From Escherichia coli (GTDB taxonomy: Bacteria > Pseudomonadota > Gammaproteobacteria > Enterobacterales > Enterobacteriaceae), in the NCBI RefSeq assembly GCF_044647545.1, contig NZ_CP172818.1: a stretch of DNA of 64,000 nt; one strand, 5' to 3'. A program made the translations under genes and the position numbers. This document shows positions 9,872 to 34,584 of this stretch, piece by piece. The notes beneath the pieces are model-generated. The model was given only the letters and a program-made list of their open reading frames with translations, searched no databases and had not been told where the DNA came from. Each line of letters starts with the position of its first letter. Position 1 is the stretch's first letter.

Positions 9872-9938
9872 GTGGTCTAGAGTCAAGATTAGCCCCCGTG
9901 ATGTTGTCAGGTGCATACCTGCAACGTGCGGGGGTTTT
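9872..9938 (+). ncRNA. rdlD: Antisense antitoxin RNA RdlD (approximate boundaries)
   Basis: Plus-strand GC hairpin (cccccg...cggggg, 9893-9934) followed by TTTT lies in the ldrD 5' leader, where the Rdl antisense RNA is expected; the 5' end is a guess. Confidence 0.4.
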
Positions 9939-10301
9939 CTCTCTCCAGCAACCAATGCCACCAGGGATAAAGCCCCCGCAACATTGCGCCTCACCGGAAC
10001 CTTTCCGGCTTGCCACTGATTCTACGATTGCTTTTTACCGTCAGCACCCGGCAATCTTCCTCATTGCGTGATGCATTCCAGCTTAATTTCTTTATTTGCA
10101 ATAGTTGCAGTTCATATCCGGGCTGACTCCAGACTGGTAGTGAAATGCGCATTTTTGTAGAATTGCGCCTCCTCGCGACCTCCCCAGTGAATCTGTTGCC
10201 TCATTTTTTACATACTGCGTATTCGACTTCTCCACCTGTTGCGCAAGAGAAACTGGGTTTATTCATTTTTGCGAGGCCGACTTCTTTCTGGACAGGACTT
10301 T

Positions 10302-15679: not shown

Positions 15680-17287
15680 TTATTCGATAGAGACATTTTC
15701 GAAGTGATGTTTGCCTAATGGATCAACCACATAGCCTTTAACTTCTTTGCGTACCGGTTCAAACACGGTGGAGTGAGCGATGATCAGTGCCGGAGCCTGA
15801 TCGTGCATCACGACCTGTGCTTGTTTGTACAGTTCAACACGTTTATTGTGGTCGTCGGTAGCACGCGCCGGTTGAATCAGATCTTCAAACGGTTTGTAGC
15901 ACCATTTTGAGTAGTTGGAGCCTTGTTCAGAGGCGGCGCAGCTGAACAGGGTGGCGAAGAAGTTATCCGGATCCCCGTTATCGCCAGTCCAGCCCATCAT
16001 TACCGTCTGATGCTCGCCATCTTTCGCACGCTTGAGGTACTCACCCCATTCGTAGGTGACGATTTTGGCCTGCACGCCCACTTTCGCCCAGTCTGCCTGA
16101 ATCATCTCCGCCATGCGGCGAGCATTCGGGTTATACGGACGTTGTACTGGCATTGCCCACAGGTCGATGGAGAAACCTTTTTCCAGACCCGCTTCTTTCA
16201 GCAAGGCTTTCGCTTTTTCAGGATCGTAAGTGTAGTCCTGAACGTCGTCGTTATAGCCCCACATGGTTGGCGGGATCAGGTTTTTCGCTGATACGCCCGC
16301 GCCCTGATAAACTGCTTTGATGATGGCGTCTTTGTTCACCGCGTAGGTCAGAGCCTGGCGAACTTTCACGTCATCCAGTGGTTTTTTCTGCACGTTATAC
16401 GAGAGATAACCGACATTCAGCCCCGGCATTTCCATCAGGTTGATGGATTTATCCTGCTTCATGCGGGCGATATCTGCCGGGTTCGGGTACGGCATCACCT
16501 GGCATTCGTTCTTCTGCAATTTCGCGTAACGCACGGAAGCGTCAGGAGTAATAGAGAAGACCAGCGTATCGATCTTCGGTTTGGTGCCCCAGTAGCCATC
16601 AAACGCTTTATAGCGAATACGGGAATCTTTCTGGTACTGCTGTAACTGGAACGGGCCGGTACCGATTGGGTTGAGATCCAGTTTTTCCGGTGTACCGGCT
16701 TTCATCATCGCGTCAGCATATTCTTTTGACAGAATAGAGGCGAAGTCCATTGCCAGGTCAGCGAGGAACGGCGCTTCCGGGCGAGTCAGCACAAACTGAA
16801 CGGTGTTATCGTCCACCTTTTTCACTTCGCTGATCAGCTCCGGCAAGCCCATGCCTTCAAAGTATTCGTAGCTGCCGCCAGAAACTTTATGGTACGGGTT
16901 TTGCGCGTTTTTCTGACGATCGAACGAGAACACCACGTCATCGGCGTTCAGTTCGCGCGTCGGTTTGAATTCTTTATTGTCGTGCCACTTCACACCTTTA
17001 CGCAGATGGAAGGTATAGGTTTTACCGTCTTCGCTGACTTCCCACTTTTCAGCGAGGCCCGGGATCACTTCGGTGGTGCCGATTTTAAATTCAACCAGAC
17101 GGTTATAAAGCGGTACGGAAGAGGCGTCATAGGTGGTGCCGGAGGTAAACAGCTGCGGGTTAAACCCTTCCGGAGATCCTTCTGAGCAATAAACCAGAGT
17201 TTTAGCCTGAACACTTGCTGCGACGGTCATAGCCACCAGGCTGAGACCAAGCTTCAGCATCCCTGACTTTTTCAAGGAAATACGCAT
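15680..17287 (-). CDS. dppA: Periplasmic dipeptide-binding protein DppA
   Basis: 535-aa ORF with N-terminal signal peptide (MRISLKKSGMLKLGLSLVAMTVAASVQA); solute-binding protein family 5. Confidence 0.9.
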   Translation of the reverse strand: MRISLKKSGMLKLGLSLVAMTVAASVQAKTLVYCSEGSPEGFNPQLFTSGTTYDASSVPLYNRLVEFKIGTTEVIPGLAEKWEVSEDGKTYTFHLRKGVKWHDNKEFKPTRELNADDVVFSFDRQKNAQNPYHKVSGGSYEYFEGMGLPELISEVKKVDDNTVQFVLTRPEAPFLADLAMDFASILSKEYADAMMKAGTPEKLDLNPIGTGPFQLQQYQKDSRIRYKAFDGYWGTKPKIDTLVFSITPDASVRYAKLQKNECQVMPYPNPADIARMKQDKSINLMEMPGLNVGYLSYNVQKKPLDDVKVRQALTYAVNKDAIIKAVYQGAGVSAKNLIPPTMWGYNDDVQDYTYDPEKAKALLKEAGLEKGFSIDLWAMPVQRPYNPNARRMAEMIQADWAKVGVQAKIVTYEWGEYLKRAKDGEHQTVMMGWTGDNGDPDNFFATLFSCAASEQGSNYSKWCYKPFEDLIQPARATDDHNKRVELYKQAQVVMHDQAPALIIAHSTVFEPVRKEVKGYVVDPLGKHHFENVSIE

Positions 17288-17857
17288 TATTCTGCTCCAA
17301 TTGTGATGTTTGTTGTTTTAACCCTTTGCAGTGGGTTGTCGCCGCCTGACCTTTTTTGTTTTTTGCCCGGTCGGGTCAACGTTATGAGGTGGGGATGCCG
17401 TACTAATTAACATCAGTGTAACAGTGCGGATCCTCCAGAAAATGCCCCTCGTGACCTACAATCTGTCAACAGAATGTGAAAACGTCAATACAGCCAACCG
17501 GGATTTACACCAACGGTGAGAATCAACAAACAAAGATTAAAAAAACTTCAAACAGCTATTTGCAGCAGAGAAATTTGTGCTACGCCAACACAACCAGAAC
17601 AATCAGCTTAATATTTAGCAACATTTGGTGATTAAGTTTTATGCATTTAATGAAAAAAATCTGAGGTAAAGGTGGATATCTGAGCGATTAATACCATGAA
17701 CGCTAAAACGCACAGGGGAAAATGCCAGCGCCAGCCATAAGTAACGCAAAAAAAGATTTAAGCAAATATAAAAAAAGACAATGGTTTCTGTCACAAATCC
17801 GTTAATGGATAGTGAGATATGGGGCGCAAATTTGGCAGGGAAATGTGTGGTGTGTAG

Positions 17858-17960
17858 ATCGGATAAGGCGGTCGCGCCGCATCCGACAATGGGCCGGTAC
17901 ATTTGCCTGATGCGACGCTGACGCGCCTTATCAGGCCTGCATCGAGTCGAACCTCCTTGT
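17858..17960. repeat. BIME/REP element (two inverted REP units)
   Basis: ggataaggcggtcgcgccgcatccgaca followed by gcctgatgcgacgctgacgcgccttatcaggcctgc; matches the REP consensus pattern (GCCGGATGCGGCG...CTTATCAGGCCTAC). Confidence 0.6.
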
Positions 17961-18801: not shown

Positions 18802-18878
<77 letters not shown>

Positions 18879-30038: not shown

Positions 30039-30234
30039 TTGCATCACCCGCCAATGCGTGGCTTAATGCACATCAACGGTTTGACGTACAGACCATTAAA
30101 GCAGTGTAGTAAGGCAAGTCCCTTCAAGAGTTATCGTTGATACCCCTCGTAGTGCACATTCCTTTAACGCTTCAAAATCTGTAAAGCACGCCATATCGCC
30201 GAAAGGCACACTTAATTATTAAAGGTAATACACT
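30039..30234 (+). promoter_or_regulatory. cspA: cspA promoter (-35 TTGCAT, -10 CTTAAT, AT-rich UP element) and about 160-nt cold-responsive 5' UTR
   Basis: TTGCAT at 30039-30044 and CTTAAT at 30062-30067 with a 17 bp spacer; a long leader precedes the ATG at 30235, consistent with the thermosensing cspA 5' UTR. Confidence 0.7.
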
Positions 30235-30447
30235 ATGTCTGGTAAAATGACTGGTATCGTAAAATGGTTCAACGCTGACAAAGGCTTCGGCTTCATCACT
30301 CCTGACGATGGCTCTAAAGACGTGTTCGTACACTTCTCTGCTATCCAGAACGATGGTTACAAATCTCTGGACGAAGGTCAGAAAGTGTCCTTCACCATCG
30401 AAAGCGGCGCTAAAGGCCCGGCAGCTGGTAACGTAACCAGCCTGTAA
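30235..30447 (+). CDS. cspA: Major cold shock protein CspA
   Basis: 70-aa [73 protein letters not shown]; RNP1 motif KGFGFI and RNP2 motif VFVHF. Confidence 0.95.
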
Positions 30448-30474
30448 TCTCTGCTTAAAAGCACAGAATCTAAG

Positions 30475-30502
30475 ATCCCTGCCAAATGGCGGGGATTTTT
30501 TT
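30475..30502 (+). terminator. Rho-independent terminator of cspA
   Basis: Hairpin atccctgcc-aaat-ggcggggat followed by TTTTTTT. Confidence 0.7.
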
Positions 30503-30635
30503 ATTTGTTTATTCAGGAAATAAATAATCGTTCGCGTAATAAAATCTATTATTATTTTTGTGAAGAATAAATTTGGGTGCAATGAGAATGCGCAACGCCG
30601 TAAGAAAGGCGGGAATAACTTCCCGCCGAAGACGC

Positions 30636-30788
30636 TTACTCTTTCAATTTGCAGGCTAAAAACGCCGCCAGCTCATAATTCTCCTGTTTAATATGCAATT
30701 CACACAGTGAATCTCTTATCATCCAGGTGAAAAATAAAAGCGTGAAACAAATCACTATTAAAGAAAGTAATCTATATTTCTGCGGCAT
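30636..30788 (-). CDS. hokA: Type I toxin HokA (Hok/Gef family small membrane peptide); locus disrupted by IS150
   Basis: 50-aa reading MPQKYRLLSLIVICFTLLFFTWMIRDSLCELHIKQENYELAAFLACKLKE; the IS150 left end begins 33 bp upstream of the start codon. Confidence 0.8.
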   Translation of the reverse strand: MPQKYRLLSLIVICFTLLFFTWMIRDSLCELHIKQENYELAAFLACKLKE

Positions 30789-30867
30789 TCCCAGCCTCCT
30801 GTGTTGATTTCCACCGAGTATGTACTGCACCCATTTTGTTGGACGATGAAATGGAATAGCCCCTGAT

Positions 30868-31389
30868 ATGTCAAAGCCAAAATACCCTTTTGAAAAGCGC
30901 CTTGAAGTCGTGAATCACTACTTCACTACTGATGATGGTTACAGGATCATCTCGGCACGTTTTGGTGTCCCCCGAACCCAGGTCAGGACATGGGTTGCCC
31001 TCTATGAAAAACATGGAGAAAAAGGTTTAATTCCCAAACCTAAAGGTGTTAGTGCTGATCCAGAGTTGCGTATTAAGGTCGTGAAAGCTGTGATCGAGCA
31101 GCACATGTCCCTTAATCAGGCTGCTGCTCACTTTATGCTTGCTGGTAGTGGTTCTGTAGCCAGGTGGCTGAAGGTTTATGAAGAGCGCGGAGAAGCTGGT
31201 TTACGCGCGCTCAAGATTGGCACCAAAAGAAACATTGCAATATCAGTTGATCCAGAAAAAGCGGCATCAGCATTGGAGCTGTCAAAAGACCGACGTATTG
31301 AGGATCTTGAAAGGCAAGTTCGATTTCTTGAAACGCGGCTTATGTATCTAAAAAAGCTGAAAGCCTTAGCTCATCCCACGAAAAAGTGA
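30868..31389 (+). CDS. insJ: IS150 transposase OrfA (InsJ), HTH DNA-binding protein
   Basis: 173-aa ORF MSKPKYPFEKRLEVVNHYFTTDDGYRII...; IS3-family OrfA. Confidence 0.9.
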   Translation: MSKPKYPFEKRLEVVNHYFTTDDGYRIISARFGVPRTQVRTWVALYEKHGEKGLIPKPKGVSADPELRIKVVKAVIEQHMSLNQAAAHFMLAGSGSVARWLKVYEERGEAGLRALKIGTKRNIAISVDPEKAASALELSKDRRIEDLERQVRFLETRLMYLKKLKALAHPTKK

Positions 31390-32237
31390 AAGTACTCAAC
31401 GAGCTAAGGCAGTTTTATCCTCTTGATGAGCTTCTCAGGGCTGCGGAGATACCGCGCAGTACGTTTTATTACCATCTAAAGGCTCTCAGCAAGCCTGACA
31501 AGTATGCGGACGTTAAAAAGCGTATTGGTGAGATTTATCACGAGAATAGAGGCCGATACGGATACCGTAGGGTAACGCTGTCTCTTCATCGAGAAGGGAA
31601 ACAGATTAACCATAAAGCTGTTCAGCGCCTGATGGGAACCCTCTCACTTAAAGCAGCGATTAAGGTCAAGCGATACCGCTCTTACAGAGGAGAGGTAGGG
31701 CAAACCGCCCCTAATGTTCTCCAAAGAGATTTCAAGGCTACGCGGCCAAACGAGAAGTGGGTTACCGATGTTACTGAATTTGCAGTCAATGGGCGCAAGC
31801 TGTATTTGTCTCCAGTAATAGATCTCTTCAACAACGAAGTTATTTCTTACAGCCTTTCGGAAAGACCAGTGATGAACATGGTTGAGAATATGCTCGATCA
31901 GGCATTCAAAAAGCTTAATCCTCACGAGCATCCTGTTCTGCACTCTGACCAGGGATGGCAGTATCGTATGAGAAAATATCAAAATATTCTTAAAGAACAT
32001 GGTATTAAACAAAGCATGTCCAGAAAAGGCAATTGTCTGGATAATGCTGTGGTGGAGTGTTTCTTTGGAACCTTAAAGTCGGAGTGTTTTTATCTTGATG
32101 AGTTCAGTAATATAAGCGAACTGAAGGATGCTGTTACGGAATATATTGAATACTACAACAGCAGAAGAATTAGCCTGAAATTAAAAAGTCTGACTCCAAT
32201 TGAATATCGGAATCAGACCTATATGCCTCGTGTTTAA
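31386..32237 (+). CDS. insK: IS150 transposase OrfB (InsK), DDE integrase catalytic domain; expressed as an OrfAB fusion by -1 frameshifting
   Basis: 283-aa ORF in the -1 frame relative to insJ; DDE-type motifs; slippery A_AAA_AAG at 31349-31355 within the overlap region. Confidence 0.85.
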
Positions 32238-32473
32238 CTGTCCAACTTTTTGGGGTCAGTACACACTTTGATTTATAGTCAGGTGGGGCTTTTCTCTGTC
32301 TGCCTTTCGGTGAATACCTGAGACAAACAGTCTCAAGCACCCGTGGCTATTCTAGCTTAATAAGTTCGTTTCTTCTCCTTGATATAATCCTAAAAAAATC
32401 TCATAAAATTAATATATGAGACAATCTTTATTCAGCAGAAGATTATTAAAGGTTGCTCTATTATTTAGCGATA

Positions 32474-32502
32474 AAAAAGCCTGCCAGATGGCAGGCTTTT
32501 TA
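32474..32502 (-). terminator. Rho-independent terminator of glyQS
   Basis: Hairpin gcctgccagatggcaggc flanked by A-run and T-run (U-run on the minus strand), 13 nt downstream of the glyS stop. Confidence 0.75.
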
Positions 32503-32514
32503 ATAACGACGTTA

Positions 32515-34584
32515 TTACTGCAACAGCGAAATATCCGCAACTCGCAGGAATAATTCGCGCAGTTTCTCCAGCATGGTAAGACGGTTGATTCGCAATTCTT
32601 TGTCATCAACCATGACCATCACTTTATCGAAGAAGGCATCAACCGGTTCACGCAGCTCAGCCAGTTCGACCAGCGCATCCTGGTAACGACCTTCAGCAAA
32701 GTACGGCTCTAGCTTGTCACGTAGCACCACAACCTGCATCGCCAGTTTAATTTCTTCCGGCTCTTTCAGAGTAGAGGCATTCACGCGGTCGCTCAGCACT
32801 TCGTCAGATTTCGCCAGAATGTTAGATACACGCTTGTTCGCCGCCGCCAGTGCTGCAGCTGCATCCAGGGTACGGAAGTGCGATACCGCTTTCATTCGGG
32901 CATCGAAATCAGCCGGACGAGTCGGACGACGCGCCAGTACCGCCTGGATGGTGTCAACGGTGTAACCTTCGTCCTGATACCAGGCGCGGAAGCGACCGAG
33001 CATAAAGTCGATAACATCATCAACCACGTTGGCATTAGTCAGCTTATCGCCATACAGACGCACTGCTTCTTCGGTCAGGGTTTGCAGGTCAAGATTGAGG
33101 TTCTTCTCAACGATAATACGCAGCACGCCAAGTGCGGCACGACGCAACGCAAACGGGTCTTTGTCGCCTTTCGGATGCTGGCCGATACCGAAGATACCCG
33201 CCAGAGTATCCATCTTGTCAGCAATCGCCAGCGCACAGGCTACCGGGTTAGACGGCAGGTCATCACCGGCAAAGCGCGGCTGATACTGCTCGTTCAGCGC
33301 CACGGCAACATCTTCCGCTTCGCCATCGTGACGCGCGTAGTGCATCCCCATAACGCCCTGGGTGTCGGTGAACTCGAAGACCATGTTGGTCATCAGGTCG
33401 CACTTGGACAGCAGGCCCGCACGGGTTGCGTGGTTAACGTCAGCGCCAATCTGTTCAGCAATCCAGCCAGCCAGCGCCTGGATGCGGTCAGTTTTGTCGC
33501 GCAGTGTACCCAGCTGTTGCTGGAACAACACGGTTTGCAGGCGCGGCAGGTTATCTTCAAGACGTTTTTTACGGTCGGTATTGAAGAAGAACTCGGCATC
33601 CGCCAGACGTGGACGAACGACTTTCTCGTTACCGGAGATAATCTGCTGCGGATCTTTCGATTCGATGTTGGCAACGAAGATAAAGTTCGGCAGCAGTTTG
33701 CCGTCGTTCGCATACACCGGGAAGTATTTCTGGTCACCTTTCATGGTGTAAACCAGCGCTTCAGACGGCACCGCGAGGAATTTCTCTTCGAATTTTGCGG
33801 TCAGCACAACCGGCCATTCCACCAGCGAAGCGACTTCTTCCAACAGGCTTTCGCTTAAGTCAGCGTTACCGCCAATCTTACGCGCCGCTTCTTCGGCATC
33901 GGCTTTAATCTTCGCCTTACGTTCTTCGTAATCGGCGATGACTTTCCCGCGCTCACGCAGAATTTCCGGATACTGATCAGCATTGTCGATAGTGAATTCC
34001 GGCTCGCCCATAAAGCGGTGGCCGCGAATCACGCGATCGGACTGAATGCCCAGAATGGTAGCCGGAATAACTTTGTCGCCCAGCAGCAGGGTCACGGTGT
34101 GCACCGGACGCACGAAGTGCACGTCGCTTGCACCCCAACGCATCAGTTTCGGGATCGGCAGTTTCGCCAGCGAAGTCGCAACCATATTCGGCAGCAGTGC
34201 TTCGGTGCTTTCGCCCTTCACGTGGGCGCGATACAGCAGCCATTCACCTTTATCGGTAGTCAGACGCTCAGCCTGGTCAACGGTAATACCGCAACCACGC
34301 GCCCAGCCTTCTGCCGCTTTGCTCGGTTTGCCTTCAGCGTCGAACGCCTGAGCAATCGCCGGGCCGCGTTTTTCGATTTCACGATCCGGTTGCGCTTCCG
34401 CCAGGTTAGCTACTTTCAGCGCCAGACGACGCGGAGCAGCAAACCATTGAACGGTGCCGTGTGCGAGGCCAGCGTTATCCAGCTCCGCAGTAAAGTTCGC
34501 AGCAAAGGACTCAGCCAGGCTGCGCAGTGCTTTTGGTGGCAGCTCTTCAGTGCCGATTTCCACCAGAAAAGTTTTCTCAGACAT
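32515..34584 (-). CDS. glyS: Glycine--tRNA ligase beta subunit
   Basis: 689-aa [23 protein letters not shown]...; directly downstream of glyQ. Confidence 0.95.

Follow-up and report, generated by a model that had tools for sequence, protein, structure and literature searches.

We analyzed a stretch of 64,000 nucleotides of the Escherichia coli chromosome (contig NZ_CP172818.1 of assembly GCF_044647545.1), in the following called the window, and focused on the hokA/sokA type I toxin-antitoxin locus, which in this genome carries a copy of the insertion sequence IS150. The locus is located between cspA (30235-30447, plus strand) and glyS (32515-34584, minus strand), with the gene order cspA, hokA, IS150, glyS. 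An IS150 insertion at hokA is already known: it is annotated in the K-12 strain MG1655 and attributed in the literature to Pedersen & Gerdes 1999. In the MG1655 record (NC_000913.3) hokA (b4455) and a mokA pseudogene (b4647) are followed by IS150 at 3720633-3722075 (b3557/b3558) and, one base past the element, by a sokA pseudogene (b4614). The disruption of sokA of MG1655 by IS150 has also been reported with reference to Pedersen & Gerdes 1999, and all five hok-sok pairs of K-12 have been described as putatively inactivated (PMC11551753).

The toxin gene itself is intact. An open reading frame (ORF) of 50 amino acids on the minus strand (30636-30788) matches the Hok/Gef family of membrane toxins (Pfam HOK_GEF, PF01848) over residues 5-46 of 50 with 77.1 bits, the cutoff being 22. 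A preliminary description of the window, generated by a model from the letters and a list of their ORFs, had named this ORF as an intact hokA, and both the ORF list and the Pfam match bear this out. Residue 37 of HokA is N here and S in K-12, the underlying single nucleotide polymorphism (SNP) being at position 30679. The same description had placed IS150 33 bp upstream of hokA, which is true as a difference of positions; the actual gap between the ATG and the element comprises 32 nt (30789-30820, minus strand). These 32 nt are a leader remnant that belongs to the mokA frame and is in frame with hokA. It has kept the Shine-Dalgarno (SD) sequence of hokA, AGGAGG, and has lost the SD sequence and AUG of mok. 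In MG1655 the equivalent of this region is labelled as part of the mokA pseudogene (3720448-3720632). A longer ORF of 64 amino acids (30636-30830) was considered as hokA and rejected as an artefact: it opens with a GTG within the IS150 inverted repeat, no SD sequence is seen before this GTG, and hokA is the internal 50-amino-acid ORF.

Just past the hokA stop codon we noticed a terminator-like GC hairpin (30608-30627, minus strand); TTTCTT follows its 8 pairs, 6 of which are G-C. The 3’ untranslated region (UTR) of the hokA mRNA further contains the box CUCAUUGCACCC (30575-30586, minus strand), which resembles the fold-back element fbi and, as read from the sequence, is complementary to the 5’ end of the mRNA, GGGUGCUUGAG. 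By direct reading, GGGUGC at the leader 5’ end (32342-32337) is complementary to GCACCC in the 3’ UTR (30575-30580, plus strand). Judging by its likeness to hok of plasmid R1, the box would act as a fold-back element. Antisense to the 3’ end of hokA we found the equivalent of ysaE, a small-protein annotation of MG1655 (30588-30659, plus strand), which is contained in a 28-amino-acid and a 43-amino-acid ORF of the mechanical ORF list.

The element upstream of hokA is a complete IS150 of the IS3 family (30821-32263, plus strand; 1443 bp) with its left end towards hokA. Length, ends, ORFs and database identity all confirm the complete element with imperfect terminal inverted repeats that had been described before. 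Its termini read TGTACTG...CAGTACA, the 35-nt arms of the inverted repeat are 71% complementary, and both length and termini are identical to those of six other copies, that of K-12 among them. More than 6,000 E. coli records match the element with ~99% identity, so that a chance resemblance can be dismissed. The element contains insJ (orfA; 30868-31389, plus strand), encoding a protein of 173 amino acids with helix-turn-helix DNA-binding domains, and insK (orfB; 31386-32237, plus strand), encoding 283 amino acids with an rve/DDE catalytic domain. A slippery heptamer, A AAA AAG (31350-31356, plus strand), was read from the sequence as the putative site of a programmed -1 frameshift giving the InsJK transposase, and RefSeq tags IS150 transposases with "programmed frameshift". 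Inside the right end, on the hokA-sense strand, a terminator-like hairpin of 15 pairs is followed by a T-rich tail (32186-32220, minus strand). It faces transcription entering from outside IS150 and would be expected to stop transcripts that start at the hokA promoter. As a side observation, the last 24 nt of IS150 (GTCCAACTTTTTGGGGTCAGTACA) are found as exact matches in many assemblies of Streptococcus, Alistipes/Rikenellaceae, Clostridia, Leptotrichia and Fusobacterium, mostly at contig ends among the matches listed; IS150-group elements of distant phyla therefore have an identical terminal repeat.

In uninterrupted loci the hokA promoter and the hokA AUG are connected by a leader of ~150 nt, and in its middle the hairpin arms GAGGC/GCCUC enclose the SD sequence and AUG of mok. 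The antisense RNA sokA would start in this hairpin region and end at a hairpin with a U-run further upstream. The Rfam family RF01794, although named "sok", aligns to the sense strand of the hok mRNA leader from its 5’ end to the hok AUG. In EDL933 and OkiPb01703, whose loci are uninterrupted, the match covers 152 nt with ~120 bits and has its end on the start codon of hokA. In the window the only match lies beyond IS150 on the hokA strand (32246-32342) with 69.5 bits, the gathering score being 59; the alignment runs from model position 1 to about 83 and collapses past this point, at IS150. Together with the alignment to empty sites this match locates the 5’ half of the hokA mRNA leader, from GGGUGCUUGAG... 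to ...AAAUCAAAGUG, at 32264-32342 (minus strand), severed from hokA. Adjacent to it lies the presumed hokA promoter region (32343-32385, minus strand), where TAGAAT was read 7 nt before the leader 5’ end. On the plus strand a 35-nt remnant of the 3’ end of sokA (32265-32299) maps to the sokA pseudogene of MG1655 (3722077-3722111); it comprises the U-run and one arm of the terminator hairpin, the hairpin being read from the alignment. A putative -35 element of the sokA promoter, TTGATT, placed by alignment and by the layout of R1 sok, is left orphaned on the other side of IS150 (30804-30809, plus strand).

Removing IS150 from the window and aligning the remaining sequence to the empty sites of EDL933 and OkiPb01703 revealed that the element does not simply interrupt the leader. 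It replaces 38 bp, which read AGAGGCTAACCTTATGGTGTCTATACATAGAGGGGCCT on the plus strand of EDL933 and which all of the empty-site alleles examined contain. Read on the hokA strand as AGGCCCCUCUAUGUAUAGACACCAUAAGGUUAGCCUCU, the segment comprises most of the mok SD sequence, the mok AUG and eight mok codons; SD sequence and AUG of mok in EDL933 (GAGGCCCCUCUAUG) fall in the deleted part. The mok frame starts 20 codons upstream of hokA and is in frame with it, which fits the mokA pseudogene of MG1655 ending with the 3’ end of hokA. The deleted 38 bp would also have held the sok -10 element (TAACCT in intact alleles, 17 bp past TTGATT), the sok start and one arm of the sok terminator hairpin. Structurally the segment is the top of the GAGGC...GCCTC hairpin, and the flanks that are kept pair at its base.

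The allele in the window therefore no longer has the continuous structured leader of ~150 nt, which is split by IS150, nor a mok frame with its own SD sequence and AUG. A full Sok gene with promoter (as positioned above), 5’ recognition tail and terminator hairpin is absent as well and is represented by the 35-nt 3’ remnant. The preliminary description had proposed that IS150 separates hokA from its mok/sok control region. In its core this stands: the 5’ half of the leader and the sokA remnant are indeed found beyond the element, and the leader on the hokA side is reduced to the 32-nt remnant. However, the control region was not merely displaced, since its 38-bp core is deleted.

Compared with the hok/sok (parB) system of plasmid R1, which belongs to the same Hok/Gef family, the locus shares the toxin and several blocks of the leader, namely the 5’ GGxGCUUGAG stem, the mok SD sequence GAGGC followed by AUG, and GCCUCUUAC. 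Further common features are an antisense RNA that overlaps the start of mok and a putative fold-back box at the 3’ side whose sequence is complementary to the mRNA 5’ end. In contrast to R1 the locus is chromosomal, and according to our reading of the sequences mokA and hokA share one frame, while mok of R1 uses a different one. Since the mok start and the 5’ part of sok are deleted, what is left in the window is a remnant rather than a functional system.

The comparison with K-12 shows the same arrangement (hokA-mokA’-IS150-sokA’): gene order, positions of both junctions, orientation of the element, the loss of 38 bp and the lack of a duplication are all shared with MG1655. The lineage is nevertheless another one: the window and K-12 differ at 37 positions in 2.5 kb, with 11 SNPs inside IS150; the first base past the right end of the element is C in the window and A in K-12. 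The closest complete genome, strain XDL, has 20 differences from the window.

We next assessed the alleles of the hokA leader in 5,426 complete E. coli genomes. The leader is uninterrupted in 2,817 of them (52%), while 1,592-1,638 (~30%) carry the allele of K-12 and the window. A second IS150 allele, of the type found in KE54 (NZ_CP141079.1, 2753600-2757600), is present in 874 genomes (16%). It affects the same leader between cspA, hokA and glyS, with IS150 in the opposite orientation, flanked by an AAG duplication and without any deletion. Its insertion point is only 2 bp from the far junction of the window, and it is independent of the window allele. Nearly half of the complete E. coli genomes thus carry IS150 in the hokA leader, by way of two independent alleles. 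In the record of strain BW25113 (NZ_CP122319.1) we noticed a second IS150 match at ~1,524,863 besides the expected hokA copy, which may be a recent laboratory transposition.

IS150 is inserted in hok leaders elsewhere, too. Five copies of the element taken at even steps from our first search were all located in type I toxin loci (sib/ibsA, hokA and three plasmid hok leaders). From exact-match scans we assembled 43 distinct right-end flanks; 69 junctions came from metagenome contigs, which were scanned with a 34-nt pattern of the IS150 right end, while E. coli records and a single Enterobacter genome supplied the others. Leaving out the K-12 allele, 30 of the 42 distinct junctions show the same order of IS150 right end, a duplication of 3-4 bp and then YGRGGC. 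With a background frequency of 0.00077 per position for this motif the binomial p-value is ~5e-75. At least 23 of the 43 flanks lie in leaders of the hok family; for 17 a Hok ORF was detected by phmmer, always downstream of the element and co-directional with it. In these leaders the motif is the mok SD sequence (CGAGGC or TGAGGC), and the right end of IS150 always faces hok. The same motif also occurs at targets outside hok loci (e.g. our junctions L131, L133, L134, L145, L162, L181, L190 and L192). The flanks have diverged while the ends of the element are identical, which argues that the insertions are independent.

Among the matches listed, with seven usable enterobacterial loci, IS150-like ends are also present at the same places in hok leaders of Buttiauxella and Superficieibacter. 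In Buttiauxella brennerae the right end of such an element abuts TAC/TCG of the hok leader, a position homologous to the hokA-proximal junction of the window. De novo insertions into hokC in a laboratory derivative of REL606 (positions 16,972 and 16,989; PMC5419217) are located on the motif as well, at ACC/CGAGGC and CAC/T-CGGGGC. These two hokC sites were the only testable ones: the other published IS150 coordinates that we tried fall inside cusA, chaB and trg of REL606, and we presume that they refer to REL4536, whose genome is rearranged. Both strands of the intact hokA leader contain the motif in the form of the hairpin arms, as GTA/AGAGGC on the plus strand and AAG/UGAGGC on the hokA strand, and the ends of the 38-bp deletion coincide with these sites.

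Two observations touch on the motif from other sides. In E. coli LP50-1 (NZ_CP101858.1; L005) IS150 with a CCC duplication occupies a hairpin tip within the SIB RNA/ibsA type I locus and YGRGGC is not at the usual offset; hairpin structure may thus also attract IS150. Motif-like hexamers are further found inside IS150 itself, ~35-44 nt from each end: GCCCCT at 30859-30864 and GCCTCG at 32225-32230 on the plus strand, corresponding to AGGGGC and CGAGGC on the minus strand. This could be a coincidence or be related to the reading of the target by the transposase.

Concerning the consequences for the locus, hokA keeps its ORF and its SD sequence AGGAGG but would be deprived of its promoter, of half of its leader (the 5’ one) and of the start of mok, from which hok translation is normally driven. 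The antisense gene sokA would have lost its -10 element, its start and the 5’ part that recognizes the target, and would persist as a 3’ stub. Transcription from TAGAAT, the presumed promoter of hokA, would now run into the right end of IS150, with the terminator-like hairpin at 32220-32186. Our promoter scan called no promoter-like site facing hokA near the left end of IS150. Anatomy and cited literature suggest that hokA is silent in this allele. With toxin and antitoxin both disabled the allele would therefore be tolerated and common, and it should be neutral.

Taken together, we are highly confident that the window holds the chromosomal hokA/sokA locus between cspA and glyS inactivated by the same IS150 event as in K-12, and this event was probably a single step of the kind termed "IS150-del". 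Such events have been described in the long-term evolution experiment (LTEE) as a new IS150 together with an adjacent deletion, with a published example of 14 bp (Ngan, Parab, Bertels & Gallie, mBio 2024, PMC11708052). Target-site duplications were found there for none of 14 IS150-del events and for all of 69 simple insertions (PMC11708052). The allele in the window agrees with the definition of these events, as more than 10 bp of adjacent sequence (38 bp) are lost and no duplication is present. The hokA-proximal junction, CGAGTA followed by the left inverted repeat (IRL), would be the product expected from a canonical insertion at GTA/AGAGGC, and the far junction lies 2 bp from a second, independently used motif site. 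Insertion and loss of the intervening DNA would most likely have occurred together, no duplication being formed. The published cases are de novo laboratory events, whereas the allele studied here is an old natural one whose origin in one step is inferred.

Several points weigh against this reading. The predicted precursor, with IS150 at GTA/AGAGGC and an intact leader on its right side, was not found in the 5,426 genomes, and the events can therefore not be put in order. The best match was the K-12 type with 86% coverage in two pieces, and an odd match to W444, in which the element is annotated as a frameshifted pseudogene, had the same 86% coverage. If the second site had been used canonically, the end of IS150 now present at the far junction would be the "wrong" one. 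In thermodynamic terms the hairpin GAGGC...GCCTC is weak as DNA (z = -1.6). Neither in the window nor in the intact locus were the promoters of hokA and sok detected by the consensus scan, and their positions follow from the analogy to R1. The evidence for a silent hokA consists of the anatomy and the cited literature, and an in-frame ORF of 64 amino acids runs from a GTG at 30830 in the end of IS150 into hokA, so that read-through from the element is possible. No SD sequence is seen before this GTG, however, and on that strand IS150 contains a single promoter-like site, at a distance of 1.3 kb.

An origin in two steps is the alternative that survives best. Either IS150 would have inserted canonically at GTA/AGAGGC, duplicating GTA, and 41 bp next to its right end would then have been deleted, or two copies of IS150 at both hot spots would have been rearranged to one. 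The proximal junction, which fits the canonical motif site, is consistent with this origin, and adjacent deletion and recombination between IS copies are listed among the frequent causes of a missing duplication (Ngan et al., PMC11708052). Two IS150-family elements in a single hok leader, at both motif sites and 46 bp apart, do occur in a metagenome contig (OKMA01000136.1; L170), and copies of IS150 with chimeric flanks and without duplication exist as well (L159, L161 and L185). No intermediate was present among the genomes examined, however, and one-step IS150-del events are documented (PMC11708052). Canonical insertions at both sites would moreover be inverted relative to each other, as in L170, and recombination of inverted copies inverts the intervening DNA instead of deleting it. 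We therefore regard the two-step origin as possible but somewhat doubtful.

The unusual copies just mentioned deserve a description of their own. In L170 the right ends of the two elements face each other across ~46 bp, reading cta/AGAGGC ... GGCCTCG/tgt and then TGTAATGACCCC. In L159, L161 and L185 the left and right flanks of IS150 come from different loci and no duplication is present; in L159 and L161 a plasmid-type hok leader on the left is combined with a different hok-type leader on the right. The mismatched flanks therefore imply IS150-mediated recombination between loci.

Insertions of IS150 into other hok loci resemble the case studied here. sokE::IS150 is present in more than 400 isolates and in XL1-Blue, and evolved derivatives of REL606 carry IS150 in leaders of hokC, hokE, mokB and ldr. 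These cases share with the window the same insertion sequence, the same class of target and the fact that the leader is hit rather than the toxin ORF. Where checked (hokC, plasmid hok and hokA of KE54), the insertions are simple, with a duplication of 3-4 bp and the right end of the element facing hok; the element in the window is oriented the other way round, comes with a deletion of 38 bp and lacks a duplication.

The hok/sok loci are known as insertion hotspots for mobile elements, which has been read as adaptive loss (Finn et al.; Durrant et al.). Following this interpretation, IS150 would cluster in hok leaders due to selection for the loss of hok/sok and not due to an intrinsic target preference. 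The share of hok leaders among our sites (at least 23 of 43) is in fact far above the prediction from a genomic motif frequency of about one per kb. Selection leaves unexplained, however, the single-nucleotide precision of the insertions and the fixed orientation of the element relative to the motif. The targets outside hok loci bear the same motif, and in diverged hok homologues of several genera the insertions share one position. Selection as the sole cause of the clustering appears unlikely to us. On balance we lean towards an insertion of IS150 that is directed by sequence: the arms of the mok SD hairpin offer YGRGGC on both strands, which would make chromosomal and plasmid hok/sok loci of Enterobacteriaceae traps for IS150. 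The recurrent "adaptive inactivation" would then largely be mutational bias, and the allele of K-12 and the window would have arisen by use of both arms and excision of the hairpin. Our data suggest, at any rate, that hok/sok inactivation hotspots partly reflect the target bias of IS150.

Target bias is known for other elements of the IS3 family; IS911, for example, inserts beside sequences resembling its own ends. The relation described here is similar in being asymmetric and end-specific, with one end of the element related to a short target a few bp off. Unlike the case of IS911, YGRGGC has no obvious resemblance to the tips of IS150 (TGTACTG), and a reading of the motif by the IS150 transposase is putative. 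No target consensus for IS150 was found in the searchable literature, a search that extended neither to ISfinder nor to older subscription papers; the target motif is the only part of this work that might be new.

The presence of IS150 at hokA, annotated in the reference genome and described in 1999, changes nothing by itself. What is added is the precise anatomy of the allele, in which the regulatory hairpin is deleted and not displaced, the picture in the population and a testable target rule for IS150. If this rule is true, parallel IS150 hits in hok/sok loci, which are read as selection in evolution experiments and in screens of the genome-wide association type, need a null model of mutational bias. 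Target choice by transposases of the IS3 family could then also be studied in a simple natural setting.

We also considered whether hokA is still a working toxin gene that was rewired and not silenced, being driven by an IS150-borne or read-through promoter and possibly translated as a 64-amino-acid IS-HokA fusion. After an apparently long residence of the element in ~30% of genomes the ORF and its strong SD sequence AGGAGG are intact, and the in-frame GTG ORF reaches into IS150. Alleles lacking the element, however, have just as intact an ORF as those carrying it, so its conservation does not argue for expression. As described above, a promoter-like site facing hokA near the left end and an SD sequence before the GTG were not seen. 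Expressed Hok would be toxic with sokA destroyed, and the K-12 hok loci are considered putatively inactivated in the literature (PMC11551753). A working hokA is very improbable on these grounds.

The usual target-site duplication of IS150, 3 bp and sometimes 4 bp long, is absent in the window because 38 bp of the leader were lost. The flanks are gta and cac, as had been noted in the preliminary description. Among the other copies of IS150 that we compared, the termini were exactly the same in six, and five had clean duplications (ccc, aag, cca, ttc and cgct). The preliminary description had explained the missing duplication by ends set off by one base or by mutation, and a simple insertion of this kind can practically be dismissed: although the flanks differ and at least one flank base is polymorphic (K-12 has aac for cac), the element is an exact 1443-bp IS150 with termini shared by the six copies, and the absence of 38 bp that every examined empty-site allele contains is beyond any point mutation.

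The window contains some other features. The cspA thermoregulator RNA next to hokA is located at 30075-30502 (500 bits). Several sub-threshold Rfam matches around 32441-32614 (STnc370 and several leader families) were dismissed, all of them lying on the hairpin downstream of glyS (inverted repeat 32475-32500). A second type I locus, ldrD/rdlD, is indicated by the rdlD antitoxin RNA at 9875-9940 (88 bits); insertions of IS150 in ldr leaders also occurred in a published evolution experiment (PMC5419217). The window further contains naRNA4 at 17857-17937, with 63 bits just above the gathering score, and a tRNA-Pro(CGG) at 18802-18878, both of which are ordinary features.

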